From positions 3,387-67,386 of the forward strand of contig JACPKC010000002.1 in NCBI GenBank assembly GCA_016187225.1: DNA of 64,000 nt, read 5' to 3'. This DNA comes from Candidatus Berkelbacteria bacterium. Its GTDB lineage: Bacteria > Patescibacteriota > UBA1384 > JACPKC01. Each line of letters opens with the position of its first letter. Within the stretch, counting starts at the first letter, position 1. The notes beneath the pieces are model-generated. The model had not been told where the DNA came from and made no database searches. It was given only the letters and a program-made list of their open reading frames with translations. Positions 2,210 through 47,131 of the stretch are shown here, one piece after another. The position numbers were made by a program, and so were the translations under genes.

Positions 2210-2258
2210 AGCTTTTTTATCGGCCTGTCAGCGTGTGTCTGTAGGCCGGTTTTTTATT
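2210..2258. terminator. bidirectional rho-independent terminator between convergent genes
   Basis: CGGCCTGTCAGCGTGTGTCTGTAGGCCG hairpin (2221-2248) flanked by AGCTTTTTTAT upstream and GTTTTTTATT downstream. Confidence 0.5.
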
Positions 2259-3474
2259 CTGGAACGAAAACAGTCCAGACGCGGCCATTGTCGTCCGGCA
2301 CCGCATCTTGATAAAGCTCTTCACCCGTACTGGCATTTTTGATCGTAACCGGCAGATCCGGTGGTAATTGAAGTGTAGCCGTGCCACTGCTATTCGTTAT
2401 CACTTCATCGATTTTTTGCCCGCCAGTATAGATTTCAAGGAGTTGATTAGGTTCAGTTTGATTCGTGTTTTTATTATTAGTAGTGATTAGCGTTAGACTC
2501 ACTGTCTGGCGCGTGTGATCAAGTGTCACCTTACTTTCCTTGCCTTCTTCAACAAAGGCGGGACTAATAAGATTACCCTCTTCGTCGTAGATATCGACCT
2601 CGCCGGGTGCGACTTCCTCAACCGTGTCTTGTCCATTGGAGTCGGTGATGACTTCGTGAACAACGTCGGACTTGCGTTCCTTAACGCGCAATTTTACAGC
2701 CGGCGCCCCACTCTTGAGTTGAATCTTAACTTTTCCCGCCTTAATACTGGGCGTTGCCCCGCCGCCGCCAACACTGACTTGATTCCCGCCAGGGCTTAAA
2801 TCGACGTTGGAGCTCCCGGGTGAGATCGAAGGTGTAATATCGGGCGCGTTGAAAGTGGTATCGGCGACGCCTAGAACCTGGAGAATATAAATTCCGATTG
2901 GCCACGCGAGAACAACGAGAGCAATGCCAATGACCGATTCAGTCAGCATGCTTTTTGCGGCCTTGCTTTGCGTGTCGTCGCCGGCGGCTGTGAGATAGCG
3001 AATCCCGCTTCCCAAAAAAAGAATCATAAAAATTACCGTGGCGGCGATTACGACCAGATTCCAGATTTTTGGAAAAGACGTACCGATATCATGGAAAATT
3101 GGGGGCAAGCTTTCGGGCGGTTCGAGGGCGAGCCCGACATTACCTTCTTGGCCAGTTTGTGTTGCCCCGCCCCCAGCGCTTTCACCGGAAAGTTTTTGCA
3201 TTATATTACCTAGAGTACCCTTTACGCCTTCTACCGCATCATTAATCCCTTTACCAGTGTTTTTAGGTATTTGCCCAAGTGATTTTAAGCTATCGTTAAT
3301 TGATTCCAAGATGGCGCTAGAGCCATCTTTAGCGTCAGCGGGTTCTGTTTTTCCAGCCGCACCACTTTCCCCCCCGGGGTCATCTCCAGCCTGGACTGTC
3401 GATATCGAGAATATCGGGGAAAATACAAAAACAAAGAAGAGTAAGCAATAATAAATAAAACAATAACTCTTCAC
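2254..3474 (-). CDS. secreted protein with long Gly/Ser-rich ectodomain and C-terminal two-helix VirB2/TrbC-pilin-like hairpin (paralog 1 of array)
   Basis: Signal peptide MKSYCFIYYCLLFFVFVFSPIFSISTVQA. Hairpin IWNLVVIAATVIFMILFLGSGIRYLTAAGDDTQSKAAKSMLTESVIGIALVVLAWPIGIYIL shares the motif YLxxAG(D/N)xxxxKxAK...aw..G with five downstream paralogs. Confidence 0.55.
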   Translation of the reverse strand: MKSYCFIYYCLLFFVFVFSPIFSISTVQAGDDPGGESGAAGKTEPADAKDGSSAILESINDSLKSLGQIPKNTGKGINDAVEGVKGTLGNIMQKLSGESAGGGATQTGQEGNVGLALEPPESLPPIFHDIGTSFPKIWNLVVIAATVIFMILFLGSGIRYLTAAGDDTQSKAAKSMLTESVIGIALVVLAWPIGIYILQVLGVADTTFNAPDITPSISPGSSNVDLSPGGNQVSVGGGGATPSIKAGKVKIQLKSGAPAVKLRVKERKSDVVHEVITDSNGQDTVEEVAPGEVDIYDEEGNLISPAFVEEGKESKVTLDHTRQTVSLTLITTNNKNTNQTEPNQLLEIYTGGQKIDEVITNSSGTATLQLPPDLPVTIKNASTGEELYQDAVPDDNGRVWTVFVPE

Positions 3475-3499
3475 GTTTTACCCCTCGCTCGTAACCAAT

Positions 3500-3895
3500 T
3501 TACTCAACCGTTGTGGGGATGCTGTCGCTTGTCACGCCTTCGATTCCCAAGAGACGCAGAACATAGGTGCCAACTGCCCAGGCGGTTACCACGAGCACCA
3601 AGCCAACCACGGCGTCGAGCATGAGCGCCCGCGCTTTTTTCACCTGCTCTTCATTGCCGGAAGAGGCAAGATACATAATGCCGCCAACCAGAAAAAGAAT
3701 TACAAACACCACGCCCGCTACGATGATGGCGATATCGAAGATGGATTCGATTGTGCCTTCAAAAGTCGTGAATTTATTCGGAATTTTATCGGGTTGTTCG
3801 ATCGTTTGCCCAAAGGCAACCGCCGGCATGGCCCAGCTCGAAACAGCTAAAATCTTGACTAAACTTTCCCTCTGTCGCATTAACCAGACTGTCAT
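3500..3895 (-). CDS. VirB2/TrbC-pilin-like small membrane protein (paralog 2)
   Basis: 131 aa: signal peptide, then IAIIVAGVVFVILFLVGGIMYLASSGNEEQVKKARALMLDAVVGLVLVVTAWAVGTYVL (TM-loop-TM). Confidence 0.6.
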   Translation of the reverse strand: MTVWLMRQRESLVKILAVSSWAMPAVAFGQTIEQPDKIPNKFTTFEGTIESIFDIAIIVAGVVFVILFLVGGIMYLASSGNEEQVKKARALMLDAVVGLVLVVTAWAVGTYVLRLLGIEGVTSDSIPTTVE

Positions 3896-3922
3896 AAATC
3901 CTCCTTTGATAAATATATATAT

Positions 3923-4244
3923 TTAGCCGCCGATATCGATTGAACCAATCCCAAGCAAACCCAAAACGTAGTTGCCCACGGCCCACGCAATCACAATAAT
4001 CACCATCCCGATCACGGCATCAATTAAAAGCTGTTTGGCTTTTTTAGTTTGTTCATCGTTACCCGCATTAGTTAAGTACATTATCTGGCGGATCAATATT
4101 TTGCAAAACTTGCCCGCCACCGCTGGCGCTTTCGCCTGTCGACTTCACACTTGGCGCGCCTGGCGCAGTCTTAGCCGCTTTCGCCAAAACGAGTGACGGC
4201 GCAAGAAACACAATTAATGAAATTAAGGAAATAAATTTTCGCAT
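3923..4244 (-). pseudogene. frameshifted or truncated copy of the paralog at 5976..6605 (signal-peptide ORF and C-terminal pilin-like ORF in different frames)
   Basis: Reverse ATG at 4244 encodes signal peptide MRKFISLISLIVFLAPSLVLAKAAKT... and stops after 59 codons. In another frame, 3923..4120 encodes MYLTNAGNDEQTKKAKQLLIDAVIGMVIIVIAWAVGNYVLGLLGI, identical to the C-terminus of the 5976..6605 product. Confidence 0.5.
3943..4083. repeat. about 140-bp segment identical to 5991..6130 (pilin-paralog C-terminal module)
   Basis: Direct string match AACCAATCCCAAGCAAACCCAAAACGTAGTTGCCCACGGCCCACGCAATCACAATAATCACCATCCCGATCACGGCATCAATTAAAAGCTGTTTGGC...GTTAAGTACATTA present at both loci. Confidence 0.85.
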
Positions 4245-4259
4245 AGCCCTCCAGCCTAT

Positions 4260-4580
4260 TTATTGAATGCCCAGATCAAGTTTGCCCGCCTCGCCAATGC
4301 CGAGGAGTTGCAAGATATATGTGCCTATCGCCCAGGCAATCACGACAATAATCAAACCCACGATCGCATCCACCAACAGTTTTTTGGCTTTATTCGTGTT
4401 TTCCTCGTTGCCGGCGGCCACAAGATACTGAATGCCGCCAATTAAAAAAAGCAGAACGAAAATCACCCCGGCCAAAGTGATGCCGATGTTAAAAAAAGCG
4501 CTGATCGCGTCCGAGATATTGGTAAATTCCGTGCCACGTAATTTATTTGGCGTATCGACGCTTTGGGCGAGTTGAATCAT
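4260..4580 (-). CDS. VirB2/TrbC-pilin-like small membrane protein (paralog 3, no obvious signal peptide)
   Basis: 106 aa: ITLAGVIFVLLFLIGGIQYLVAAGNEENTNKAKKLLVDAIVGLIIVVIAWAIGTYIL. Confidence 0.6.
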   Translation of the reverse strand: MIQLAQSVDTPNKLRGTEFTNISDAISAFFNIGITLAGVIFVLLFLIGGIQYLVAAGNEENTNKAKKLLVDAIVGLIIVVIAWAIGTYILQLLGIGEAGKLDLGIQ

Positions 4581-4670
4581 TTTTCTTGCCTCTATAAGTT
4601 TATAATGCCACTATACCATACTCGTTTCGTCGAGCGTATTTCTCCACAGAGGTGGTGAATTGCCAGTGTC

Positions 4671-5117
4671 CTAGGGTTCCAACTTAATCGCGTCCGGCAG
4701 TATGAACGAGGCGGCGAGAAATTTGAGAAACATATAGGAGCCAAAGACCACGCCGATACCGAGTAAAGTATATAAGATGCCCATTTTAGCCGCTTGTGCT
4801 TGAGTGGCGTTTCCACTCGAGGTAACAAGCTTGTAGCCATTTAAGATCAGAAAAATCAGGGCGATTGCCAGAACAAACCTAATCATTGCGTTCGCGATCG
4901 CTTTCAAAAATATCATAATATTTTCAAAGGTTTGTTCTTTTGGGTCGCTAACAATGCTCCAGTCGATACCAAAAAGATTTTGATCAGCGGCGTGCGTAAG
5001 TTGAGGAATGAGAAAAACGGCAAAAAGAAAAATTAAGCCTATCAAGAAGGTTTTTGACTGAACACGTTTTACCAGTTGGTAGGTTTTGGTTCGCAATGAC
5101 ATTTTTTCCTCACTCAA
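4671..5117 (-). CDS. VirB2/TrbC-pilin-like membrane protein (paralog 4, divergent)
   Basis: 148 aa. Signal peptide ends ...LTHA. Two C-terminal helices around TSSGNATQAQAAKM. Confidence 0.5.
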   Translation of the reverse strand: MSEEKMSLRTKTYQLVKRVQSKTFLIGLIFLFAVFLIPQLTHAADQNLFGIDWSIVSDPKEQTFENIMIFLKAIANAMIRFVLAIALIFLILNGYKLVTSSGNATQAQAAKMGILYTLLGIGVVFGSYMFLKFLAASFILPDAIKLEP

Positions 5118-5979
5118 TAAAGCGTTTTAAGACTTCGAGAATACCATAAGCGGTGAGCACAACGACGGCGCCCATAATTGCAAACAACATGCCGTTTTTA
5201 GCTTCTTTAGTCGCATCGGTATCGCCAGCGCCCAAAAGATAGCGGAAAGCATTTATCATAAAGAAAACCAGCGTTACCAGGCCAAGAAGAATGATCAAGA
5301 TGTTGGGGATGCTCGAAGTGACTAGGGTTTCAATCGAATCGACGTTTAAAACACTTTTCAAATCTATCTCGCTGATTGGCGTGATAACTACCTTCGGGCT
5401 GGGTGGAAGAGTTGTGCCCTTACTGCTCCCGCCCAGGCCGCCGTTTCTGCTACTACCTCCGCCGCCCCCACTCCCACCACTTCCTCCATCAGCCCCCCCG
5501 CCAGTCCACGGAAACTGCCAGCCGTTACCAGACCCGCCATCAATCCCATTATTAAGATCTGATTCCGTAAACAGATCATCATTTGGACCATCGTCAAACC
5601 ACCAGCGGCTATAATCATCATCTGTCATTTCCCAATCATTGTCGCCATCGTTGCTTCCTACGCCGCTCTCGCTCCCAGATCCGCCATCAATTCCATATTC
5701 AAAAGGCAATCTTACGTTGTCATCATTGCCCGTGTACCAGCTGTTATCTTGATTCGGAACATCGTCAAACCATGAGCGATTATCATCTTGATCGGCAGAA
5801 GAAAATCCACCACTATTGTCCTCATTATATGGCAAGTACCAGCCGTTATATGGGTTAAATGAAGCTTGAATTGGAAAGCGAATGTTGGAATAGACAAATG
5901 CGCTTACTCCAACCAAGCCAGTCAAGCCGAGGATGAATAGTCGAAGCTTAATTTTTTTATTGAGAGAGAATTTTTTCAT
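5110..5979 (-). CDS. secreted protein with Asp/Trp/Gly-rich low-complexity ectodomain and C-terminal pilin-like hairpin (paralog 5)
   Basis: Signal peptide MKKFSLNKKIKLRLFILGLTGLVGVSAFVYS. Repeats of the type WFDDxPN..W and a (GGS)n run. C-terminus FRYLLGAGDTDATKEAKNGMLFAIMGAVVVLTAYGIL. Confidence 0.6.
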   Translation of the reverse strand: MKKFSLNKKIKLRLFILGLTGLVGVSAFVYSNIRFPIQASFNPYNGWYLPYNEDNSGGFSSADQDDNRSWFDDVPNQDNSWYTGNDDNVRLPFEYGIDGGSGSESGVGSNDGDNDWEMTDDDYSRWWFDDGPNDDLFTESDLNNGIDGGSGNGWQFPWTGGGADGGSGGSGGGGGSSRNGGLGGSSKGTTLPPSPKVVITPISEIDLKSVLNVDSIETLVTSSIPNILIILLGLVTLVFFMINAFRYLLGAGDTDATKEAKNGMLFAIMGAVVVLTAYGILEVLKRFIE

Positions 5980-6605
5980 AAACTAATTAAACCAATCCCA
6001 AGCAAACCCAAAACGTAGTTGCCCACGGCCCACGCAATCACAATAATCACCATCCCGATCACGGCATCAATTAAAAGCTGTTTGGCTTTTTTAGTTTGTT
6101 CATCGTTACCCGCATTAGTTAAGTACATTACGCTTTGAAAACTGGAACCTAGATCTGGCGCACCAATTTGAAGGATTGCGTTCCCACCAGTGCCACTTGT
6201 TCCACCACCATTGCTACCACCATTTGAATTTGCGCCGCCACTCGCGGCTTTATTAGGTGATCCACCTGACGAGGAACCGTTTTGAGCTAAAAGCCCTCCT
6301 TGCTGACGAATTTCATCAAGGCCTGGCGCCGGGTCTACGTCATCGGGGCGGCTAAGTGGCCTAAGTTCATTCCTACCGAGCGAGGTGTTGGTAAGACCCC
6401 CGTTAAATTCGGCGTCAATTTTATCTTGCGCATCCCCGCCCTCACTAATCATTCCACCATCAACCCAAGCTGGGGATTGAACTGGATCAGCTGAAGCGGT
6501 AAAACTAATTTTAGAGTAAGCAAAGGCGCTGGCGCTGATTAGACCCGTCAGTCCGAGGGCAAAAAGTCGAAGCTTAATTTTTTTGTTGAGATAAATTTTT
6601 TTCAT
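5976..6605 (-). CDS. secreted protein with Gly/Ser/Asn-rich ectodomain and C-terminal pilin-like hairpin (paralog 6)
   Basis: Signal peptide MKKIYLNKKIKLRLFALGLTGLISASAFAYS is nearly identical to that of paralog 5. C-terminus MYLTNAGNDEQTKKAKQLLIDAVIGMVIIVIAWAVGNYVL. A 4-nt overlap with the upstream gene start suggests translational coupling. Confidence 0.6.
   Translation of the reverse strand: MKKIYLNKKIKLRLFALGLTGLISASAFAYSKISFTASADPVQSPAWVDGGMISEGGDAQDKIDAEFNGGLTNTSLGRNELRPLSRPDDVDPAPGLDEIRQQGGLLAQNGSSSGGSPNKAASGGANSNGGSNGGGTSGTGGNAILQIGAPDLGSSFQSVMYLTNAGNDEQTKKAKQLLIDAVIGMVIIVIAWAVGNYVLGLLGIGLISL
5991..6130. repeat. second copy of the about 140-bp identical segment (see 3943..4083)
   Basis: Direct string match. 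Confidence 0.85.
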
Positions 6606-6651
6606 ATCAAAGATTGTTGTATCGTTTTGTCTCCTCGCGATAATAAATCAC

Positions 6652-8052
6652 TCACTCACCCTGTAAAATGGCAGAAATTTTTTGAGCCGCTTCTTCAATG
6701 GCATTTTGTGGCGCCTGACTCTTGGTGCCCACGCGTTGAATTAAGTCGCGGAAAATTGTGTCAACTTTGTCGGGACGTTTCGTTTTATACCAACTCTTTG
6801 CCGTCTGTTGCTGATATGCAAACGGATTACCGCTCTCGCCTCGATCTAAAACGGTGGGCGGTTCTTCTTCGGGTTTAGGATCAGGCCGTTTTGTTGCCGA
6901 ACGATAAGGATTACCGCGCTCAATCACCAAATTTTTTAACACCTCCCAGGCTAGAGTGGGATTTTTGGTATTTTTTGTGACCGTTTCAATATAGTACGAA
7001 GCATAGTCGACCGGCGTATCGATGTCGCGCACCTGCGGCAGAGGTATGGATGAATATTTGAGTGTCGGCGCGAGCTGGTTAAAGATTAGTTCGTAGTATT
7101 GAAAGCCAAAAATCATCGCCGCCTTGCCTTCAATAAAAGCCTGAACATCGCCTGGCATAGAGGTGTTCCAGGAATAGTAAGATTTGGCTGGATCGGCAAA
7201 ACCGGTAAAGCGTTCTAATGCCTCTGTGCCCTTGAAAACAGTTTGGCCAACGGCATTTTTAACGCCTAAATGAAAGCTTGCGTTGGTGTGCTCGGGCGAA
7301 ACCATCTCGGCGCCGTTTTGGAGCATGAGCGCGTAGACAACGTCTTCGGCGCGCGAAATGTTGTTGGCGGTGCCGGCGGCGAGACCAGAGACGCTAATAC
7401 TCCCATCGGGATTTTTTTCAGTGAGAAGTTCAACCGCGCGCTGGAGCTTGTCGTAGGTATTGAGCGGATCGCGGAGCAAGTCAGCCTCTTCATCGCGGTC
7501 GACATCTTCGAGTTCAGAGATTTTTTTGTTGAAAACGGCGGTGTTTTTCCAGATGCCGAGGGTGTCAACATAGTAAGGCAAGCCATAAATGCTTCCATCG
7601 TACACCACATCTTGCGTAACGACCGGGGCAAACAGGGCTTTGAGGGCATCTTCATCGGTTTGATTGCTGTTTTTACCGAGGAGACCATTGGGCATCGGGA
7701 CGAGTTTATTCTTGTGTCGCGGAAGCCAATCGTTACGGATCGACCAAATATCCGGCCCCTCGCCCGCGGCGAGCGCTTCAGCGGTAGTCAGTTCGAACTC
7801 GCTCGCGCTCATGAGTGTGTATTCAAGTGTGATCGCGGGATTGTCGCGCTCGAACTCCTCGATAATCGGTTCAAAAACCTCGGCGCTATCAAAGGTGCGC
7901 CAGATCTTGAGCGTGACTGGTTCGGTTTGGCCAGCGATGCCGCTACTTTGACTGCTTGAAGATTTCCGGCCGATACAGCCAGTTAAGAGTATTGGAATCA
8001 AGGCAAGCGCTAAAGCTCGCCCAAACCATTTAATTGGAGTTTTCTGACTCAC
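6652..8052 (-). CDS. ABC-transporter-type extracellular solute-binding lipoprotein (sugar-binding family 1-like)
   Basis: Lipobox LLTGC after MSQKTPIKWFGRALALALIPI. Body KIWRTFDSAEVFEPIIEEFERDNPAITLEY...GLPYYVDTLGIWKN is typical of SBP_bac_1 proteins. No permease gene adjacent. Confidence 0.65.
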   Translation of the reverse strand: MSQKTPIKWFGRALALALIPILLTGCIGRKSSSSQSSGIAGQTEPVTLKIWRTFDSAEVFEPIIEEFERDNPAITLEYTLMSASEFELTTAEALAAGEGPDIWSIRNDWLPRHKNKLVPMPNGLLGKNSNQTDEDALKALFAPVVTQDVVYDGSIYGLPYYVDTLGIWKNTAVFNKKISELEDVDRDEEADLLRDPLNTYDKLQRAVELLTEKNPDGSISVSGLAAGTANNISRAEDVVYALMLQNGAEMVSPEHTNASFHLGVKNAVGQTVFKGTEALERFTGFADPAKSYYSWNTSMPGDVQAFIEGKAAMIFGFQYYELIFNQLAPTLKYSSIPLPQVRDIDTPVDYASYYIETVTKNTKNPTLAWEVLKNLVIERGNPYRSATKRPDPKPEEEPPTVLDRGESGNPFAYQQQTAKSWYKTKRPDKVDTIFRDLIQRVGTKSQAPQNAIEEAAQKISAILQGE

Positions 8053-8080
8053 TTCCCCTCCGTATTTACATTACATTGTA

Positions 8081-8959
8081 TCACGCGCGCAGAACTTTAA
8101 TGAGAAACTCACGAAACTCTGCTTTGAGATCTTCGCGTTTGAGAGCGAATTCAACAACGGTTTTCAGGTACTCCAATTTATTGCCGGTGTCATAGTAGCG
8201 GCCGCCGGCGATCTCTCGAACATAAGCTTTCCGTTTTTTACTCAAAGCATCGATCGCATTGGCAAGAAAAATCTCGTTGCCGTGACCGGGGCGGGTGTGC
8301 TCAAGCTCAGTAAAAATGTCCGGCGTTAGCACATAACAACCATCGGCTAAAAGATCAGAAGGCGCTTCATTGGGCAACGGTTTTTCGACCAAACGATTCA
8401 AGATTGAAGTGTGCGGCGTTCTGGTTGGAGTGATGTCAAAAATTCCATAGCGGCTGGCATCCTCTTCTCGGGCAAGTTTGACGCCTGACAGAACCGGCTC
8501 GCCGAACTCTTGAAATGTTTCCAAGCACTGTTTCAGCCTTGGAGTTTCCGCCCAGGTAAATTGATCACCCCAAAGAACGGCAAACGGTTCGTCGCCAATC
8601 ACATGTCGAGCGTTCAAAACCGGTGTGCCGTTGCCGTAAGGACCTTTTTGGCGAATGTAGACAAAATTAGCCATCTCGGCGATTCGGCGCACCTCTTCGA
8701 TTTGGCTCTGTTTCTCGGCTGCTTCGAGACGTTTTTCCAGCTCGAATGGATAATCGAAGTGATCTTCAATCGAGCGTTTATGCCAGCCAGTGACGATAAT
8801 AATGTCTTCGATGCCCGAGGCGACAGCCTCTTCCACGACATATTGAATGACTGGTTTATCAACAACCGGAAGCATCTCTTTTGGCATTGCCTTGGTGGCG
8901 GGTAAAAAACGAGTTCCAAATCCTGCCGCCGGAATGACGGCTTTGCGAACCTTGGCCAT
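8081..8959 (-). CDS. galU: UTP--glucose-1-phosphate uridylyltransferase
   Basis: MAKVRKAVIPAAGFGTRFLPATKAMPKEMLPVVDKPVIQYVVEEAVASGIEDIIIVTG is the canonical GalU N-terminus. Length 292 aa. Confidence 0.9.
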   Translation of the reverse strand: MAKVRKAVIPAAGFGTRFLPATKAMPKEMLPVVDKPVIQYVVEEAVASGIEDIIIVTGWHKRSIEDHFDYPFELEKRLEAAEKQSQIEEVRRIAEMANFVYIRQKGPYGNGTPVLNARHVIGDEPFAVLWGDQFTWAETPRLKQCLETFQEFGEPVLSGVKLAREEDASRYGIFDITPTRTPHTSILNRLVEKPLPNEAPSDLLADGCYVLTPDIFTELEHTRPGHGNEIFLANAIDALSKKRKAYVREIAGGRYYDTGNKLEYLKTVVEFALKREDLKAEFREFLIKVLRA

Positions 8960-8971
8960 AACACCTCTTCA

Positions 8972-9367
8972 CTAGCGCGTTTTAATTGTCAGACGGCGCG
9001 CGCGAGTCTTGGTAAGTTTGGGAATTGTGATTGTGAGAATGCCGTTTTTAAGGTCGGCGTTGGCGTTGTCGGCATCCACCGAGGTGGGCAGAACATACGA
9101 CCGCGAAAATGAACCCCAGTAACACTCTTGAACGAAATAGTTTTCACGTGTAATCGTATCGCCAAACTGGCGTTCGCCTTTGATCGTGACCATGTCGTCG
9201 GTGATGGCAATGTCGAGGTTTTCAGGCAAAACACCAGCAATTGGCGCCTTAATAACCACCGAGTCTTCAGTTTGATAGGCGTCGATTGCCAATTGCCCGC
9301 CGCTATCTTCTTCCAACCAGTCGTCGCTGGCCACATCCGTAGTTTGTTTGTCTGTCATTAAACCCAT
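8972..9367 (-). CDS. Hsp20/alpha-crystallin family small heat-shock protein
   Basis: Alpha-crystallin domain: AIDAYQTEDSVVIKAPIAGVLPENLDIAI...GSFSRSYVLPTSVDADNANADLKNGILTITIPK. Confidence 0.85.
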   Translation of the reverse strand: MGLMTDKQTTDVASDDWLEEDSGGQLAIDAYQTEDSVVIKAPIAGVLPENLDIAITDDMVTIKGERQFGDTITRENYFVQECYWGSFSRSYVLPTSVDADNANADLKNGILTITIPKLTKTRARRLTIKTR

Positions 9368-9422
9368 GCCGCCTCCTCTATTTATATATTAGAGAGGCAA
9401 TGAGTAATAGGCAAGAGATGAT

Positions 9423-10124
9423 TTAGGGCGCTTCATCATAGGCGAGGGTAAGAGCGGCGCGTTCGCGAAAGCCAGCTTGGGCAAGACAGCGAGCGGCTTC
9501 GGCAAGAGTGGCGCCAGTAGTGCAAATATCATCGATCAGTAAAACAGGCCCTTGAATTTCAGGGCCTGTCCATTTAAAAACGCCGCTCACATTTTTTTGC
9601 CGCTCGCGGCGCGAAAGCCCAACTTGACTCCGCGTTTCTTGGATTCGCTGAAGTTGAGTCCTGACAGGTATGTGAGTTAACTCGGAGAGGGCGCGAGCAA
9701 GTAGAAAAGCTTGATTATAACCACGGGATCGCAAACGCTGGGGGCTGATTGGGATTGGAATGAGCGCCGACCAAGACGTGTGTTTAAGAATAGTTTGCCA
9801 ACGACTATATGCATGAGCCGCAAACTCGTCGAAGGCGGCCGAGAGCCCCTGATATTTTAACTTGTGGAGAGCGCGTTTCAGGGGTTGTTTTTGGTAACTC
9901 CCGAAACAGCCAAGCGCCTTGAGGTTCAGAGATTGTTGGTGCGTTTTGCACAGCGCGTTCGGCGCGAACGTAGTTCGTCGACAAATCTGGCATTGAGTTG
10001 GCGAGAGCGAGAGCGCGCTTTCATGAATACAAGTTTTGCAAAACCAATTTCCTCGTCGCTGGCAACCTAGACAAAAGGTTGGGCAGAGACAATCTCCAAT
10101 TTCATTAAAAATAAGTTTAAGCAT
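9423..10124 (-). CDS. comFC: ComF-family protein (ComFC-like phosphoribosyltransferase with N-terminal Cys-rich zinc finger)
   Basis: CxxC...CxxC pairs at the N-terminus. PRTase motif VLLIDDICTTGATLAEAARCL. Confidence 0.75.
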   Translation of the reverse strand: MLKLIFNEIGDCLCPTFCLGCQRRGNWFCKTCIHESALSLSPTQCQICRRTTFAPNALCKTHQQSLNLKALGCFGSYQKQPLKRALHKLKYQGLSAAFDEFAAHAYSRWQTILKHTSWSALIPIPISPQRLRSRGYNQAFLLARALSELTHIPVRTQLQRIQETRSQVGLSRRERQKNVSGVFKWTGPEIQGPVLLIDDICTTGATLAEAARCLAQAGFRERAALTLAYDEAP

Positions 10125-10167
10125 ACGCGGGCTTTACTCTTATCTTTTCACCAGAGATGATATTAAC

Positions 10168-10788
10168 ATGAGTTCGCAGTCAGCGCCGATCGCAAATTTT
10201 TTTAGCAATCGTTTGGCTTATGTCGTTTCGGCTCTCTTTAGTCCATTCTTAATTTTGCCGGCGTTAATTGTCGCCGCAACCTGGCGTGTTGCCGCCTCCC
10301 CGCCGCAATTTGTAGCTTGGGTCGGCATCCCCTTCCTTTTTCTCTTTATCATACCGACCGCTTATATTGCGAACGAAGTTCGAGCGCGGCGGATGAGCGA
10401 TATTCATATTATGGTCCGCGAACAGCGCGCGATGGCATTTTTAGTTTTTCTAGTTTCGGCCGCCGTTGCGATTGGCATCTACTGGTGGATAAAAGTTCCC
10501 GCGTCGCTCCTTATTTTAGGCGTTGTTGTTTTCTTAAATGCGTTATTTGCGGCTTTCATTACGCTTTTTTGGAAGATCAGCATTCATGCCTGGGTGCTTT
10601 CGGGTGCGGTCACGGCCTTTGCGCTGATTGTCGATTCGCCTTTTGCCTGGTGGATTTTACTTTTTATTCCGCTCGTCATTTGGTCGCGAATCTATCGCGG
10701 CCGCCACACAGTTTTGCAAGGGTTGATGGGGGCATTGATTGGCGCGAGCGCCACTTATGCGCTCTATCTTCTAATTCGGAGCACTTAG
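10168..10788 (+). CDS. polytopic membrane protein, PAP2 (type-2 phosphatidic-acid phosphatase)-like candidate
   Basis: ORF 10036..10788, start moved to ATG 10168. Six hydrophobic segments. KISIHAW (SxH) and SRIYRGRHTVLQG resemble PAP2 motifs 2 and 3 (SRx5Hx3D with D replaced by Q). Confidence 0.4.
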   Translation: MSSQSAPIANFFSNRLAYVVSALFSPFLILPALIVAATWRVAASPPQFVAWVGIPFLFLFIIPTAYIANEVRARRMSDIHIMVREQRAMAFLVFLVSAAVAIGIYWWIKVPASLLILGVVVFLNALFAAFITLFWKISIHAWVLSGAVTAFALIVDSPFAWWILLFIPLVIWSRIYRGRHTVLQGLMGALIGASATYALYLLIRST

Positions 10789-10843: not shown

Positions 10844-13800
10844 ATGCGTTGGCTCGACCGAGCGATCATATTTTTTTCTGCACTCTTGAGCGCAGTCTTG
10901 ATGGTAATTCCGCAAAGTGTTGCGGCGGTTGATTTTAATTCTTCAAATATTATTTCCAACAGTGAGTTTATCGATACAAATTCAATGACCGCGCCGGAAA
11001 TTCAGCGTTTCTTGGAAGACCGGGGCGGTTTTTTAAAAGATTTTACAGAAAACGGCCGCTCGGCCGCGCAAATCATTTACGATGCCTCTCACGGTTACGG
11101 TGATGCTTCGGGCGCGATCAACGGCATCGCGCTGACAACGAGTACCGGCACGGTGAGTCCGAAAGTGATCCTGGTCACCCTTCAAAAAGAGCAAAGTCTG
11201 CTGACAATGACATCCCAAAACGACAGCGCCTTGCGGGCGGCGATGGGCTATGCTTGTCCGGATTCGGGCGGGTGTAACTCTAACTATGCTGGTTTTACCA
11301 AGCAAGTTGAGAACGGCGCTTGGCAGTTGCGCTATAACTATGAGCGTTCACAGGCTACAGGCTTTGGCGATTATCAAGTGGGTCAATCATTTTGTTTTGA
11401 CGATTTTAACGGCACTAACTGCGGCACATATGAAAATCGCGCCACCGCCGCGCTCTACCGCTACACGCCGCATGTTTATAATGGGAACTACAATTTCCAT
11501 AATCTCTACTACAACACCTACAACTTCACTGGGCCGGAGTTCGCGGCGACCCTAATTTCTTGGTCAAGTTCGGCTGGGCTTTATCAGTATCCTTCGGTAA
11601 GCAGTGGTCAGGATGCCACCTTGCAGGTCACACTGCGAAATATGGGGCGCACGACTTGGCAAAGAGGGGCGGTGAATTTAGGCACGGAACAGAATCGCGA
11701 CCGCATCACCGGTTTCAATCGTGGAACGGGCTGGCGATCAGGAAATCGAGTTTCGTTGGTTGAAGTCTCGGTTGCGCCGGGTGAAAATGGCACCTTTAAT
11801 TTTGTGGTTTCGCCGCCTTATTCTCTTCAAAGCGGCACTTATCGAGAACACTTCCGCCTCGTGGCCGATGGCATCAGCTGGTTTGGGCCAGAGTTATTCT
11901 GGGATATTTCAGTGACGGCGAGTTATCAGGCATCAGTCAGTTCATGGTCAACTTCAAGCGGTTCGCATACTTATCCAAGCGTAACTCGGGGCGGAAATGG
12001 CACAAATATAATTTTGAGAGTTCAAAATACTGGCGCGGCAATTTGGCAGAGAGGGACGGTGAATTTAGGCAGTGATCAGCCGCGCGATCGCGGCACGGGC
12101 TTTTTGCGCGAGTCGGGCACTGGAGTGGCTTCGGGCTGGGTCTCACAGAATCGAATCCAGATGCAAGAGAGTTCAGTCCCGCCTGGTGAAACAGCGACTT
12201 TCTCCTTCTGGCTTCAAGCGCCATCGAATATGCGCCCGGGGACTTACCGAGAACACTATCGTCTGGTGGCGGATGGATTAGATTGGTTCGGACCCGAGTA
12301 CTACTGGGATTTTGATTTTCCTTTGGAGTCAAAACAGATTGCTCTAATTGACGACTCTCCAGCTCGGAAAGTTCAAGTGGGCGAGGAAACCACTCACCAC
12401 TCACCACTCATCACTCACCTGCTTACTTTCAGCGAATCGCCAGATGCGGTAAAACTCGCTTGCGCTCTTAATCTTTCTGAAGATGCGGTCGAAATTAATC
12501 AGGCAACTCAAACCGCTATTATCTCGGGTGAGATTCCTGATTTGAGCAAGCTGGCCGCCGTGTTGCCAACCCTCGAGAGTGTGGAAGCCGATGAGCCAAT
12601 TCGAATCTTCTCAACCCCGAATGACCCCAGGTATAGTAGTCAGGCAACGACTTTCTCGCAAATGAACATGCAAGCCGGCTGGGATTACGTGCAGGGCAAA
12701 ACGAGCGCTGTCATTGCCGTCATTGATACCGGCGTAGACGGAACGCACGAAGATTTAACCGGCAAGGTATTGGCAGGCAGAAATATCTCGGCCAATACCG
12801 CGATCGCGGCTAATACTGACTCGGATGACAATGGGCATGGCACGAATATCGCCGGCATCGCGGCGGCGGGCGGCGATAATTCCATTGGAATGACAGGGGT
12901 TGATTGGCAGGCGCGAATTTTGCCAATCAAAGCTTTCAATAGTGATGGATTGGCAGAGACTTCAGATATCGTTTCGGCGATTGAGTATGCTATTAATCAG
13001 AATGCGACCGTGATTACGATGAGTTTTGGTCGCTCAACACCTTCAGATGCGTTAGAAGCGGCGGTTAATAGCGCCGCCAGTCGCGGCATTCTTCTTGTCG
13101 CGGCGGCTGGCAATACGGGCGAGAGTTCAGTTTACTATCCCGCGGCTTATGAAAATGTGATTGCGGCCGGCGCCGTGCAGGCCGATAATGCTCGTGCCAG
13201 TTTTTCTAATTACGGTAGCGCTCTTGATTTAATGGCGCCGGGTGTTTCAGTAATCGCAACTGCCGACGGCGGGGGGTATGAAGCCGTGAGCGGCACGTCA
13301 TTTGCTGTGCCTTTCATTGCTGGCATCTCAACCTTGGTGAAGGATTTTCATAGTAGCGCCAGTGCGAGTGATGTAACGAGTATTTTAAACTCGACGGCCA
13401 CCAAGGTTAGCGGTATGAACGGCAATCTGCGAACCGATGAATATGGCAACGGTGTTGTGAATTTAGCCGATGCGCTTGTTAGCGCTGGAGACTATCAGGC
13501 TTCGACAATTTCTTGGTCAACCAGTAACGGTTTATTTACCTATCCAACTCTCTCTTTGGGTGGCAGTGGCGCGAATGTCATTCTCACAGTGCGAAATACC
13601 GGTACCTCGCGCTGGTTTCGCGATCTGGTGCATCTAGGCGCCGATCAGCCGCGCGATCGCGGCACGGGCTTTTTGCGCGAGTCGGGCACTGGAGTGGCTT
13701 CGGGCTGGGTCTCACAGAATCGAATCCAGATGCAAGAGAGTTCAGTCCCGCCTGGTGAAACAGCGACTTTCTGGATTAGATTGGTTCGGACCCGAGTACT

Positions 13801-14237
13801 ACTGGGATTTTCGGGTTTTATCAGAACTCGATGGGTATGGAGCAAGCACCTTAAACTGGTCAACCTCGGATGGACTTTTTACCTATCCAAGTGTTATTCG
13901 AGGTGGAGCTGGCACGAATATCGTGTTACGGGTCCGGAATACCGGCACAACGACCTGGATACAAGAGACTGTTCATCTAGGCGCCGATCAGCCGCGCGAT
14001 CGCGGCACGGGCTTTTTGCGCGAGTCGGGCACTGGAGTGGCTTCGGGCTGGGTCTCACAGAATCGAATCCAGATGCAAGAGAGTTCAGTCGCTCCGGGTG
14101 AAACCGCCACCTTTTCATTTTGGTTACAAGCGCCGTCCGGAATGAGTCCGGGCACCTATCATGAACACTTCAAAGTCGTAGCCGATGGTCTGGGTTGGTT
14201 TGGTTCAGAAGCGTACTGGGATGTTATCGTGAGATAA
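10844..14237 (+). CDS. large secreted S8 subtilisin-family peptidase with internal I9-like propeptide and five Ig-like/beta-sandwich repeats; reading frame interrupted near 13773
   Basis: Signal peptide MRWLDRAIIFFSALLSAVLMVIPQSVAA. Catalytic triad contexts AVIDTGVDGTHEDL, DNGHGTNIAGIAAAG and GTSFAVPFIAGI. Repeat unit ...NLGxDQPRDRGTGFLRESGTGVASGWVSQNRIQMQESSVPPGETATFSFWLQAPS..GTYREH(Y/F)RLVADG..WFGPE occurs at least five times. ORF 10844..14101 and ORF 13755..14237 are joined by an apparent 73-bp deletion relative to the repeat copy at 12204. Confidence 0.75.
12074..12203. repeat. 130-bp perfect intragenic repeat, copy 1
   Basis: Identical to 13643..13772, and to 13986..14090 over 105 bp. 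Confidence 0.85.
13643..13772. repeat. 130-bp perfect intragenic repeat, copy 2 (ends at the deletion/frameshift junction)
   Basis: String identity with copy 1. Downstream sequence rejoins the repeat unit 73 nt later than in copy 1. Confidence 0.85.
13986..14090. repeat. 105-bp perfect intragenic repeat, copy 3
   Basis: String identity with copies 1 and 2. Confidence 0.85.
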
Positions 14238-16722: not shown

Positions 16723-16814
16723 GAAGTAGATGGTGAGTGACGAGAGTTTTTTATTCGAGCTTGTCGAGAATCACCCTTTACTATCTATTACTCACTCTTC
16801 ATTATTTATTAAGA

Positions 16815-17951
16815 ATGAAGATCGCCATTATTTTGGGCACGCGCCCAGAAATTATTAAACTCGCCCCAATTCTTCGTCGCATCCAGGCGTCCGAGAATGA
16901 GCTTATGCTCATCCATACTAATCAGCACTACTCGGCAAATATGGACGGGGTATTCTTTAAGGAATTAGCTTTGCCAGCGCCAGACTCTAATCTTGGGGTT
17001 GGTTCAGGTACGCATGGCGCTCAAACTGGTTTAATGCTTGCCAGGCTCGAGAAGGCGTTGAACATGAATCGACCGGACGCAGTTCTAGTTCAGGGAGATA
17101 CTAATACAGTTTTAGCAGGCGCCTTGGCGGCGGTGAAGCTTGGTATTCAAGTCGGTCACGTGGAAGCGGGGCTTCGAAGTTACGACCGAACGATGCCGGA
17201 AGAGATCAATCGCGTTCTGACCGACCATGCGGCCGATATTTTATTTGCGCCCACTCAAAATGCGGCCCAGCTTTTACATGCCGAAGGTATTCCTAGCGAA
17301 CGAATCGAGGTTACTGGTAATACGATCGTGGATGCAATAAACGATCATCGTGAGTTAGTCAATTCACGTTCGTATATTCTATCCACGCTAAAGCTAGAGC
17401 CTCGAGGTTATTTGCTTTTAACCCTGCATCGGCCAGCGAATGTTGACCGACGAGAAACGCTCGCTGAAATTATTATAGGAATCACGAACGTGGCACGAAT
17501 AACTCAACTGCCGGTAGTCTTTCCGGCGCATCCTCGAACAGTTAAACAGCTTGAGCAATTCAAGCTCACGCTTCCGGTTTCATTTCGTCAAATTAAGCCA
17601 ATCGGCTACCTAGATTTTCTAGGCTTAGAAGCAAATGCCGAGCTTATTCTCACGGACTCCGGCGGAATTCAAGAAGAAGCCTGTGTCCTGCGAGTGCCTT
17701 GCGTGACCATCCGAGAAAACACCGAACGTCCCGAAACTCTGGCAGTAGGCGCTAACGAATTGGCAGGTCTAACCTCAATCGGCATTCAAGCGGCGAGTGC
17801 CAAAATGCTTGCGCAAGCTCGAACTTGGCAAAATCCTTTTGGCGATGGTCGCGCGAGCGATCGAATTCTTCACAAATTATCCACAAGGTTTTCCACACTG
17901 CCTGCAACGGGCTTTGCTAGTGTTAAGGGTCATGGCGACCACAACTTCTAA
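16815..17951 (+). CDS. UDP-N-acetylglucosamine 2-epimerase (WecB/NeuC family)
   Basis: MKIAIILGTRPEIIKLAPI...HTNQHYS...LVQGDTNTVLAGALAAVKLGIQVGHVEAGLRSYDRTMPEEINR is canonical Epimerase_2. Confidence 0.85.
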   Translation: MKIAIILGTRPEIIKLAPILRRIQASENELMLIHTNQHYSANMDGVFFKELALPAPDSNLGVGSGTHGAQTGLMLARLEKALNMNRPDAVLVQGDTNTVLAGALAAVKLGIQVGHVEAGLRSYDRTMPEEINRVLTDHAADILFAPTQNAAQLLHAEGIPSERIEVTGNTIVDAINDHRELVNSRSYILSTLKLEPRGYLLLTLHRPANVDRRETLAEIIIGITNVARITQLPVVFPAHPRTVKQLEQFKLTLPVSFRQIKPIGYLDFLGLEANAELILTDSGGIQEEACVLRVPCVTIRENTERPETLAVGANELAGLTSIGIQAASAKMLAQARTWQNPFGDGRASDRILHKLSTRFSTLPATGFASVKGHGDHNF

Positions 17952-19578
17952 AGCCGAAGTTTTAAGGCGAGCTTTGGCGCGGCAAGCGCCGGTGTTGGCG
18001 CTTGAAGCGCACGACGCTCCATCAGCTAAAATCGTTGAAGAAGCCGGTTTCGATGCCGTTTGGGCTTCAGGTTTGACGATTTCTATTACTCACGGCGTCC
18101 CCGATCTCGGTCTTTTAGATCGATCTGAAATGCTCACGACCGTGAAATGCATAAATGACGCCACAACCCTGCCGGTGATTGTTGATGTCGATGATGGTTA
18201 TGGCGGCATTCGAAATGTGATTCAACTTGTTAAGGAATGCGAGGCGATCGGTGTTGCGGCAATTATTATTGAAGAAAAAGGGCGAACAACCAAGGCCAAT
18301 TCCCTTGATCAAAATGCGCATCACTCTTTGGAAGAGATTGACGTTTTCTCGGCAAAACTTAGAGCCGCTAAGCAATATCAACGCTCGCCTCACTTTCTCG
18401 TGGTGGCCCGGATTGAGGCCTTGATCGCGGGTTTGTCCGTTGAAGAAGCGCTAAAGCGCGCCAATACCTATACAGATGCGGGTGCAGATGCGATCGTGAT
18501 TCACTGGAACAAAAAAGATCCCAGTTTAGTTTACAATTTTATCGATCAGTTTAAGGATCGGGTGCCGGTAATTGTCATCCCAACGAGTTATAGCCAGATT
18601 CCTGCCTCGGAACTTGCCAGTCGCGGCGTTAAGCTAGTGATCTATGCCAACCATCTAAGACGGGCCTCAATCACAACGATGCGCGCGATTGCTGCCCGGA
18701 TTCGAAATGATGAGCGCACCTCTGAAGTGGAGGCTGAAATCGCTTCGGTGAAAGATCTTTGGAATATGGTTGGCACACACGAGGTCATGGCCTACGAAGA
18801 ACGCTTACTGCGAGAAAGCAAGGCGCCGATCAATGCTCTTATTCTCGCGGCCGGAGAGACTAAGGAGCTTGGGCGAATCACCGACTTGCCGGTCGCGCTC
18901 ATGCAGATCAATAAGAAGAGTTTCCTTGAGTGGCAGGCACATGCATATCGGGCGGTTGGCGTTGAGGCGGTTGGCGTCGTGACCGGTTGGCGAGCCGAGA
19001 AAATCACTCTGCCCGGGTTTACCTATATTAAGAATCCTGACTATGCCAAAACAGGAATCTATCATACCCTTCAAAAGGCAAAAAAATTTTTGACCGCCGA
19101 GACCCTAGTGTCTTATGGCGATATTTATTTTTCGGATGATCCAGTGCGTCGCATTCTCGTTGAACTTGAGAATGGGCAAGCTGATATCGTCATCGCCGTC
19201 GACCCGAATATAAAATATGGTCTTGTCTCTAATGACAAAGAGCTGGTTATGACCGAGGAAGAAACCTCGTCATTGGGAAGTCGGATGGCGCATCTATCGG
19301 AAAAACCGCGTGTCCTCAAGGTGAGCAAGAAGCTAGTTGGCAACGCGATCGCGGGCGAGTTTATCGGTTTGGCTGGTTTTTCCAAATCAGCAATAACCGC
19401 CTTATTACTTTTGCCTGAATCTCAACCTGAAACAGACTGGCGCCAGGCGGATTTATGTGACGCGCTTAATACCTTGATTGCTCAAGGAATTCAAATTCGG
19501 GCAATTCCAGCGCCGTTCTGGTATGAAATTGATAAAACCGCTGACGTGCTTAATCTTTTAAGCACCAGTATGGTTTAG
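17932..19578 (+). CDS. pepM: phosphoenolpyruvate mutase fused to a C-terminal MobA-like nucleotidyltransferase (phosphonate cytidylyltransferase-type)
   Basis: The N-terminal 290 aa resemble characterised PEP mutases: EAGFDAVWASGL, DVDDGYGG, VARIEALIAGLSVEEALKRANTYTDAGADAIVIH, PTSY, LVIYANH. The C-terminal INALILAAGETKELGRITDLPVALMQI and GDIYFSD are NTP-transferase motifs. Confidence 0.8.
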   Translation: MATTTSKAEVLRRALARQAPVLALEAHDAPSAKIVEEAGFDAVWASGLTISITHGVPDLGLLDRSEMLTTVKCINDATTLPVIVDVDDGYGGIRNVIQLVKECEAIGVAAIIIEEKGRTTKANSLDQNAHHSLEEIDVFSAKLRAAKQYQRSPHFLVVARIEALIAGLSVEEALKRANTYTDAGADAIVIHWNKKDPSLVYNFIDQFKDRVPVIVIPTSYSQIPASELASRGVKLVIYANHLRRASITTMRAIAARIRNDERTSEVEAEIASVKDLWNMVGTHEVMAYEERLLRESKAPINALILAAGETKELGRITDLPVALMQINKKSFLEWQAHAYRAVGVEAVGVVTGWRAEKITLPGFTYIKNPDYAKTGIYHTLQKAKKFLTAETLVSYGDIYFSDDPVRRILVELENGQADIVIAVDPNIKYGLVSNDKELVMTEEETSSLGSRMAHLSEKPRVLKVSKKLVGNAIAGEFIGLAGFSKSAITALLLLPESQPETDWRQADLCDALNTLIAQGIQIRAIPAPFWYEIDKTADVLNLLSTSMV

Positions 19579-46058: not shown

Positions 46059-47131
46059 AAGTTCTTTTTCAGTGTCGAAAAAACTTAAACACCTACGCTG
46101 GCGGTGATCGCGTGCAAATTCTTGCTACTCAAGTCGCCTTGAAAAAATTAGGTATTGAGGCTCAACTCTCGCTCGGAGAGCCGCCAGCTTTGGACGGAAT
46201 TGATGTGGTGCATGTTTTTAATCCGCTCTTGGTCTCCGCGCGAATTCTCAAGCAGGCAAAAATCGCTGGCGTGCCAGTGGTCGTTTCCTCAATCTTTTGG
46301 CCAATGGGCGAGTATTTTCGTGCTTATAAAGATTTTACCCGTACCTTGATAACACTCCGACCCACCAACTGGGTTTCTGCCAGTCTTGAGATGGGCTTGC
46401 GTTATTTAACTTATACCTACGCTTGGAACCCATTTATCGAACATCGCCTCACTCACTTTTTGTCGCAGGCTGATCTTGTCCTGCCAAATTCAAGCGCGGA
46501 AGGCGAGATGATCGAGTCACGGTTAAAGGTTAAAACTCCTTGGCGAGTTGTGCCGAATGGCATCGATCCACTCTTAAAAGTAAAAAAGATGGTTTCACTT
46601 CCCTCTCTCTTGAAAAAAATAAAAAACTATATTCTCTGCGTCGGTCGTCTGGAGCTCCGAAAAAATCAGCATCTTTTAATTCAGGCGCTTTCGGGTATCC
46701 AGGTTCCTCTCGTTTTGGTGGGTAATCGAACCGTGAGCCCAAGTTACACCCGCGTCTGCGAAAAATTGGCGCGCCAGCACAATCAAACGTATTTTATCGA
46801 TCATCTACCTCAAGAAGCTTTGCCACTTGTCTACCAGCGAGCCCGTGTCCACGCTCTGCCTTCATGGTATGAAACGCCCGGACTTGCCTCGCTCGAAGCG
46901 GCGCTGGCCGGTTGTCGCATTGTGACGACCTCTACAGGCGGCCCGCGGGAATATTTCGGTAAAGAAGCATTTTATTGTCAGCCGAACGATCCTGGATCAA
47001 TCAAAAACGCAGTTTTACAAGCCCTAGCCGCTCCCATTTCATCTCGGCTTCAAGAGCGAATCAAGTTAAACTATACTTGGAAACAGACTGCTATCAAGAC
47101 ATTGGCAGGGTATCGGGCGGCACAACGCTAA
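46055..47131 (+). CDS. glycosyltransferase family 1 (GT4)
   Basis: ILCVGRLELRKNQHLLIQAL...PSWYETPGLASLEAALAGCRIVTT. Confidence 0.75.
   Translation: MKVLFQCRKNLNTYAGGDRVQILATQVALKKLGIEAQLSLGEPPALDGIDVVHVFNPLLVSARILKQAKIAGVPVVVSSIFWPMGEYFRAYKDFTRTLITLRPTNWVSASLEMGLRYLTYTYAWNPFIEHRLTHFLSQADLVLPNSSAEGEMIESRLKVKTPWRVVPNGIDPLLKVKKMVSLPSLLKKIKNYILCVGRLELRKNQHLLIQALSGIQVPLVLVGNRTVSPSYTRVCEKLARQHNQTYFIDHLPQEALPLVYQRARVHALPSWYETPGLASLEAALAGCRIVTTSTGGPREYFGKEAFYCQPNDPGSIKNAVLQALAAPISSRLQERIKLNYTWKQTAIKTLAGYRAAQR

Follow-up and report, generated by a model that had tools for sequence, protein, structure and literature searches.

A predicted in-frame fusion of two usually adjacent genes, with a frameshifted repeat, in Candidatus Berkelbacteria

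Introduction

Why should a subtilisin-type protease carry its propeptide in the middle of the polypeptide, behind some 500 residues of other sequence, and why does its reading frame break within one of its C-terminal repeats? These questions are raised by a gene at 10844-14237 (+ strand) of a 64,000-nucleotide stretch of Candidatus Berkelbacteria DNA from a groundwater genome bin (GenBank assembly GCA_016187225.1, contig JACPKC010000002.1, positions 3,387 to 67,386), which we call the window and whose numbering we use throughout. An initial annotation, made from the sequence alone, had described the gene as a giant S8 protease with five Ig-like repeats, perfect DNA repeats and a repeat-mediated deletion. 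That description held up in the main, though several of its details were wrong.

Comparison with relatives indicates that two genes, here called A and B, have been fused in frame to make the “giant protease”; in every relative examined they are separate, and usually adjacent. The internal propeptide, and the unfamiliar N-terminal domain with its two repeats, are where they are because of this fusion. The fuller account, to which we give about even credence, is of a lineage-specific fusion whose FW repeats evolve in concert and which has recently suffered a 71-nt deletion not mediated by repeats, giving a young truncated allele. The claim is a modest one: the object is a new fused form of known kinds of protein, its frameshift is unverified, and it does not overturn current understanding.

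Two genes in one reading frame

The 1085-aa product of the main open reading frame (ORF; 10844..14101, + strand) is 100% identical to NCBI entry MBI2589431.1, an “S8 family serine peptidase” of Candidatus Berkelbacteria from an 82,429-bp contig of a metagenome-assembled genome (MAG). The main frame is unbroken through 980 codons. A second ORF, 13755..14237 (+), encodes 160 aa in frame +1; its product is absent from the protein collection that holds MBI2589431.1.

Relatives of the two halves are of two kinds. A-type proteins have a signal peptide, an N-terminal domain (NTD) of about 205 aa and 1-3 FW repeats. B-type proteins, of about 675-690 aa, start with a membrane anchor or signal, after which come a prodomain, an S8 domain and a pair of FW repeats. 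An Ig-like β-sandwich with a “four-tryptophan” signature, the FW domain occurs in the autophagy receptor NBR1 and in diverse bacterial proteins (PMC9233695). Gene A lies directly upstream of gene B in two Saccharibacteria MAGs, with overlapping stop and start codons in one (L001) and a 19-nt gap in the other (L003), while in the closest genome match, a Berkelbacteria MAG (L004, 52% identity), a methyltransferase gene stands between them. When loci from species-representative genomes were scanned with an S8 profile, the NTD gene adjoined the S8 gene, in either order, in 28 of 55; by record title these 28 are nearly all Patescibacteria (Doudnabacteria, Saccharibacteria and Berkelbacteria). The window protein (P0001) was the sole protein spanning both halves in a word-indexed search of 5.8 billion proteins. 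When 1.84 billion representatives were searched exhaustively with phmmer, the best matches spanned query residues 2-490 or 525-972, never both.

The B-type subtilases of Patescibacteria (P0002, P0241, P0009, P0016; L004 5698-7872) have the same prodomain and thermitase-like S8A domain, followed by two FW/NBR1 domains at the C-terminus, and are 36-53% identical to the window gene over the S8 half. They keep their own anchor or signal and have both FW domains intact, whereas the window gene has no anchor, follows gene A in a single frame and is broken in its third repeat. The A-type proteins (P0003, P0004, P0006, P0248; L001 6523-8001; L003 3352-4866) share the signal peptide, NTD and FW repeats, with up to 75% identity in the NTD (P0121). 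They stop after the last FW repeat (YWD.xV and stop codon), whereas the window frame runs on into the protease. One further locus (L002) has a methyltransferase gene and a large membrane-protein gene downstream, as in the window. In that locus a 79-nt direct repeat (1-79 = 2440-2518), one copy of which is cut by the contig end, flanks the S8 gene of the closest B-type protease (P0002) and may reflect either a duplication or the assembly.

Every B-type homologue starts with a transmembrane or signal segment, and the fused ORF has none at the corresponding place. A linker of 32 residues, predicted to be disordered, stands where the relatives have a stop codon, a start codon and a membrane anchor. 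The fusion thus removed the stop codon of A and the membrane anchor of B, which leaves the single N-terminal signal peptide as the only export signal. The initial annotation was right about the large ORF and the mid-protein prodomain; it missed the fusion, and its roughly 500 aa of unknown N-terminal sequence are one of the two fused genes.

Might the organism instead have two genes, as its relatives do, with the join an artefact or a read-through caused by sequencing error? We consider this improbable. In its favour, no other protein among billions shows the fusion, there is a second suspect lesion 1.4 kb away on the same contig, and the linker contains, just before the prodomain, a 7-nt tandem repeat (ACCACTC, 4.4 copies, 12389-12419, found by TRF) which lies in frame and whose copies, if miscounted, would change the frame. 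However, no anchor remnant, stop or start codon was seen in any of the three frames of 12260-12700, the sequence from 12314 on is unique and non-repeat, so that a chimeric join is not expected, and the frame continues for 980 codons. A remnant of B's anchor in another frame was considered as a candidate and rejected, as none was seen in any frame. Were a single ACCACTC unit gained or lost, all of the protease half would shift out of frame.

The features up to the end of the catalytic domain are as follows.

10844..10927, + strand: predicted Sec signal peptide (MRWLDRAIIFFSALLSAVLMVIPQSVAA, with the predicted site before VD), read from the translation (charged n-region, hydrophobic core, AxA-like site)
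10928..11539, + strand: NTD (aa 29-232), from the homologue family, an AlphaFold2 (AF2) model and Foldseek
11540..11914, + strand: FW/NBR1 Ig-like repeat R1 (aa 233-357), from the repeat hidden Markov model (HMM), repeat finding and DNA alignment
11924..12316, + strand: FW/NBR1 Ig-like repeat R2 (aa 361-491), from PF16158 at aa 392-485, the repeat HMM and exact matches
12317..12412, + strand: fusion linker (aa 492-523), predicted disordered (AF2 pLDDT <40, model residues 1-27)
12413..12589, + strand: subtilisin-type prodomain (aa 524-582), from AF2 secondary structure and the 3whi alignment
12704..13453, + strand: S8A subtilase catalytic domain (Pfam aa 621-870), from PF00082 and the 1thm match

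The signal peptide at the N-terminus of the fused ORF is a prediction from its residues, and A-type homologues have equivalent N-termini.

Domain content of the two halves

By profile, triad and fold alike, the B half belongs to peptidase family S8 (subtilases), subfamily S8A. PF00082 matches aa 621-870 (Pfam boundaries) with 170.9 bits against a cut-off of 21.8 (E=5e-50). The catalytic residues occur in the order Asp-His-Ser, with an oxyanion Asn: D628 (12725-12727) in DTG, H665 (12836-12838) in HGT, N757 (13112-13114) in GN and S819 (13298-13300) in GTS. These columns are invariant across 15 aligned sequences, and the D, H and S contexts had rightly been reported as intact. The AF2 model of the S8 half (pLDDT 83.5) matches thermitase (1thm) with a TMt of 0.96, a root-mean-square deviation of 1.4 Å and 37% identity.

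Directly N-terminal to the catalytic domain, aa 524-582 are modelled as β-α-β-β-α-β (AF2, pLDDT about 80-87; elements E30-35, H41-47, E55-58, E63-67, H73-79 and E83-88 in model numbering). Unautoprocessed pro-subtilisin E (3whi) aligns over 377-379 columns, spanning the prodomain and catalytic domain. No Pfam family, I9 included, matches aa 491-615 at E<=10, and the precomputed Pfam annotations of B-type homologues show no I9. The I9-like propeptide of the initial annotation therefore keeps its place in mid-protein and its predicted topology, though not a Pfam I9 match; the assignment appears to hold at fold level only.

The NTD is less familiar. Its family, aligned over 10928-11548 of the window, comprises at least 158 homologues, all named hypothetical, and has no Pfam model. 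The window copy and 55 family members gave no Glucosaminidase, SLT or similar Pfam match at E<=1, and the NTD has no sequence match in NCBIfam, PHROG or the PDB. The AF2 model has a pLDDT of 95.3. Its best Foldseek match is a phage β-N-acetylglucosaminidase (prob 0.97, with a weak E of 0.13), and the further weak matches are consistently to cell-wall glycosidases: a tail lysin, SLT transglycosylases, the GH73 autolysin 8yxn, LytB (7pj3) and MltF. In the motif LQKEQSL, on helix 78-89, K87 is invariant and E88 nearly so; E88 is at most a candidate for the GH73 catalytic Glu. Elsewhere the family, found in CPR (candidate phyla radiation) bacteria and some Actinobacteria, is combined with LGFP, PG_binding_1, dockerin, FN3 or FG-GAP modules. 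With moderate-to-low confidence, and by its fold only, we read the NTD as a putative lysozyme-like or GH73-like muralytic domain.

The NTD of a Berkelbacteria CG10 locus (L061, 8001-8807) is 75% identical to that of the window; its contig stops 269 aa into the A gene, near the first FW repeat.

Repeats that share identical tracts

Searched with an HMM of its own repeats, the repaired protein (that is, with the 71-nt gap described below filled in) shows exactly four FW repeats: R1 at aa 233-357, R2 at 361-491, R3 at 884-1015 and R4 at 1022-1153. Two stand before the protease and two after it. The initial annotation had counted five Ig-like repeats, two before and three after, and the fifth is rejected on this result. 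Its suggestion of an NBR1-like Ig fold for the repeat unit was correct: PF16158 (N_BRCA1_IG) scores 48.8 bits on the main ORF and 29.9 bits on the 160-aa ORF against a cut-off of 28. R2, R3 and R4 each have the tryptophan signature, with W in (I/R/T)W, GW, FW and DW/GW, and in addition YW; the tryptophans of R3 were scored in the alignment of repaired repeats, the 71-nt deletion taking out its FW strand. In R1 a V replaces the FW tryptophan.

The nucleotide-identical stretches of 105-130 bp noted earlier were all recovered. The longest exact tract, of 130 nt, is shared by R2 (12074-12203) and R3 (13643-13772), one of 117 nt by R3 (13631-13747) and R4 (13974-14090), and one of 105 nt by R2 (12074-12178) and R4 (13986-14090). 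R2 (12274-12313) and R3 (13772-13811) share a further 40 nt. R2, R3 and R4 are 100% identical inside the tracts and 58-65% identical in neighbouring segments, so 105-130 consecutive matches cannot be chance. Just past the 3' end of the three-way 105-nt core, seven sites separate R4 from R2 and R3, six of them third codon positions, as would be expected of old paralogues. Such an abrupt change from saturated divergence to identity reads as the signature of gene conversion. A biological origin of the tracts is most likely; their homogenisation by assembly software is a less likely source that has still to be reckoned with.

In another Berkelbacteria MAG, L004, the two FW repeats of the separate A gene also share an exact tract, of 107 nt (4364-4470 = 4760-4866). 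Placed from the translation, it appears to lie in the same core region as the window tract. No other relative has an exact tract >35 nt between FW repeats.

Sharp identity between paralogues occurs a second time in the window. Two T4SS_pilin-like (PF18895) paralogues share an exact repeat of 141 nt (3943-4083 and 5990-6130) over their C-terminal transmembrane part; they belong to an array at 2254-6605 (- strand), where ORF 3923..4120 (-) is a shortened 65-aa T4SS_pilin-like copy without the N-terminal part. A Doudnabacteria MAG (L049) has exact repeats of 219 and 121 nt at 1000-1604, upstream of its S8/NTD pair.

A 71-nt gap in the third repeat

The remaining features describe the break in R3 and what follows it.

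13493..13772, + strand: N-terminal two thirds of R3, in the frame of the main ORF (exact matches, DNA alignment, repeat HMM)
13772..13773, + strand: breakpoint, 71 nt absent (exact matches, DNA alignment)
13773..14101, + strand: out-of-frame tail of 109 residues (aa 977-1085), with the stop at 14099-14101 (translation)
13773..13818, + strand: remnant of the R3 C-terminus (LDWFGPEYYWDF..), frame +1 (exact match to R2, translation)
13836..14237, + strand: R4 and native stop codon, frame +1, within ORF 13755..14237 (PF16158 E=8.7e-7 on the 160-aa ORF, repeat HMM)

R3 lacks 71 nt that match R2 at 12204-12274 and encode SFWLQAPSNMRPGTYREHYRLVADG; the offset between R2 and R3 falls from 1569 to 1498 at the break. 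Inserting the 71-nt segment of R2 at 13772/13773 gives a single ORF of 1154 aa that ends at 14237. The jump at this site relative to the copy at 12204, and the resulting frameshift, had been seen correctly by the initial annotation, except that it gave the gap as 73 nt. Translation and the 1154-aa repair also confirm that the last 160 aa are in frame solely in ORF 13755..14237.

Through the frameshift, half of R3 and the whole of R4 give way to 109 nonsense residues that are similar to nothing, and the product ends at 14101. The residues lost from R3 include the signature tryptophan strand. Frame +1 is open from 13638 to 14237, giving R4 160-199 stop-free codons with the FW signature kept. The C-terminus of R4, YWDVIVR and stop, matches the ends of homologues and lies 60 nt before the likely ATG of the next gene.

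New sequence arises at the junction between GACTTTCT and GGATTAG, where the ends have 1 nt (T) of microhomology; across it the contig reads GACTTTCTGGATTAG. There is no flanking direct repeat at the gap ends and no hairpin (DNA fold against shuffled sequence, z = 0.71). Nor is there a tandem or simple-sequence repeat at 13772, the ACCACTC array being the sole tandem repeat in the gene. A deletion mechanism involving a hairpin or direct repeats is rejected on these grounds, and the repeat-mediated or slipped deletion first proposed is not indicated. The alternative first proposed, a classic collapsed repeat, fits no better; it would drop whole units or join inside identical sequence, whereas the junction here is new.

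The initial annotation had also raised the possibility of a phase-variable protease. We think it very unlikely that the frameshift is a regulated or reversible device, whether phase variation with gene-conversion repair from R2 or programmed ribosomal frameshifting. R2 has 130 nt and 40 nt of perfect homology around the gap, which makes recombinational repair physically possible, and conversion among the FW repeats has evidently occurred. However, the break has no simple-sequence tract, ribosomal frameshifting cannot give back the 24 missing residues of the FW fold, the third tryptophan strand among them, and no relative examined has a similar lesion.

Other copies of the region were sought elsewhere. 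The unique 43-nt linker between R3 and R4 had 0 matches in JGI metagenome contigs, a protein-guided scan of metagenome contigs reached a best identity of 38%, and a protein search with the repaired R3-R4 region 54%. As no independent copy of the gene >56% identical was present in any collection searched, only reads can decide the cause of the gap, as the initial annotation had implied.

Discussion

The likely working of the fused protein is proposed as follows. Gene A contributes a secreted, probable lysozyme-like cell-wall glycosidase domain followed by FW/NBR1 domains. Gene B contributes a subtilase of thermitase-like S8A type, preceded by a prodomain of its own and followed by two FW domains. 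The whole precursor would be exported via Sec by the one signal peptide, at the N-terminus. After export, the prodomain would chaperone the folding of the S8 domain, and the protease would then cleave itself at the boundary between prodomain and catalytic domain, near the join of EADEPIRIF and STPNDP. This would yield a hydrolase-FW-FW-prodomain piece and a mature protease, as in Bacillus subtilis WprA. The probable role of the FW domains is to bind glycans or proteins of the envelope. Gene conversion has most likely pasted a core of 105-240 nt between R2, R3 and R4, in a concerted evolution of the FW repeats. With the deletion, the product would be cut short after aa 976; R3 would be destroyed and R4 thrown out of frame, while the hydrolase, prodomain and protease stay intact. 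The allele would then be a young one with a truncated C-terminus, perhaps a pseudogene in the making, and not a regulated switch.

Precedents exist for parts of this scheme. WprA is an S8 wall protease precursor that is processed to CWBP23 and CWBP52 (PMC8767453). Like the window protein it is a secreted S8 precursor with a large N-terminal part split from the protease, a split known in WprA and predicted here. In contrast, the N-terminal part of WprA is described as a propeptide, without a separate enzyme-like domain and FW repeats, and homology beyond the S8 domain is not expected. The prodomain of clostridial CspB remains attached to its protease once autoprocessing is over, and cleavage of the cortex hydrolase SleC requires CspB (PMC3567191). 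CspB and SleC are a precedent both for pairing a subtilase with a peptidoglycan hydrolase and for a prodomain that tethers the two halves, as it might here. They are, however, separate proteins of a spore-germination pathway, the hydrolase domains are unrelated in sequence, and the NCBIfam Csp models score far below their cut-offs on the window protein. Thermitase and subtilisin (1thm, 3whi) share the catalytic fold, but these classical enzymes are pre-pro-mature only, with no upstream enzyme domain and no FW repeats. Literature searches found nothing on NBR1 domains in Patescibacteria and nothing relevant on subtilisin-like proteases in Saccharibacteria or episymbionts.

Several points weigh against this account. 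The fusion and the deletion are both unreplicated, coming from one MAG contig whose nearest independent sequence is <=56% identical. The function proposed for the NTD comes from fold matches that are weak throughout (E >= 0.13, TM <= 0.48), and autoprocessing and secretion are predictions. Both C-terminal FW domains are intact in every B-type homologue examined in full; with the clean frame of R4, this means that the lesion is either very recent or not real. Spontaneous deletions in bacteria usually occur between short direct repeats, and there are none at this gap. The gap also sits where short-read assembly is least reliable, among three copies of exact tracts of >=105 nt.

It is thus a serious possibility, if somewhat short of probable, that the fusion and the converted repeats are real and the gap is an error of assembly, scaffolding, gap closing or curation, the organism making an intact 1154-aa protein with four FW domains. 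Besides the triplicated 105-130-nt tracts and the intact homologues, the 141-nt exact repeat elsewhere in the window speaks for this explanation, and the L061 contig, which ends in its A gene at the first repeat, illustrates how such repeats break assemblies. What lies downstream of the gap is perfectly preserved, from the open frame and FW signature to the native stop and the distance to the next gene, and there is no microhomology to back a biological deletion mechanism. Against it stands the junction itself. Errors in traversing a De Bruijn graph should join at shared k-mers, and the overlap here is 1 nt. A collapsed repeat normally drops a whole unit, of about 400 nt in this case, and NCBI lists the 1085-aa product as an ordinary protein. 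We infer that a graph assembler could not make the junction by a wrong turn within a repeat; the junction must then come from reads or from a post-assembly join. Being new, with only 1 nt in common with either side, it speaks for a genuine deletion; whether fixed or polymorphic, we regard a real and very recent deletion as a proposition that stands at about an even chance.

A bolder idea starts from the FW core as a recombination cassette. Conversion between repeats of the hydrolase half and those of the protease half would repeatedly remodel, and could break and repair, as at 13772, the binding domains of a secreted bifunctional enzyme that the Berkelbacteria episymbiont uses on its host's envelope. 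If true, this would be a variation system based on homologous recombination for a host-interaction enzyme in CPR bacteria, but we give it very little weight.

The deletion allele of a fused gene, as we prefer to read the locus, has several consequences. A and B are widely adjacent and here fused, which suggests that their products cooperate on an envelope. A real fusion would provide a Rosetta-stone link from an unannotated domain, probably muralytic, to a subtilase, the two families being found side by side in 28 of the 55 loci; it would suggest joint action on the cell's own or a host's envelope, and would nominate the NTD family for biochemical study. The conversion tracts illustrate the concerted evolution of FW domains. 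Users of the deposited 1085-aa protein should be aware that it ends in 109 out-of-frame residues.

Neighbouring genes

The context of the gene in the window is envelope-related. It includes the T4SS-pilin-like array, a solute-binding protein, an NTP-transferase, a PAP2-like protein and a methyltransferase, and further a UDP-GlcNAc 2-epimerase, a phosphoenolpyruvate (PEP) mutase and a second FW-bearing membrane protein. Upstream, gene order is shared between Berkelbacteria and Saccharibacteria (window 2254-10788, L001 1-6384, L061 1265-7905): T4SS_pilin-like array, SBP_bac_1, NTP_transferase, HSP20 in some cases, and then the NTD gene (A).

At 16737-19578 the UDP-GlcNAc 2-epimerase gene is followed by an ORF of 593 aa with PEP mutase and NTP_transf_3 domains, which suggests phosphonate-type decoration of the envelope. 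The 593-aa ORF probably starts later than listed, because the two ORFs as listed overlap by 155 nt. The second FW-bearing protein (47094-49070, - strand) is a polytopic membrane protein of 658 aa whose C-terminal domain matches the FW part of the S8+FW profile. Because of this match, FW domains appear to be present on several envelope-related proteins in this genome. The ORFs beside it look, from their translations only, like glycosyltransferases.

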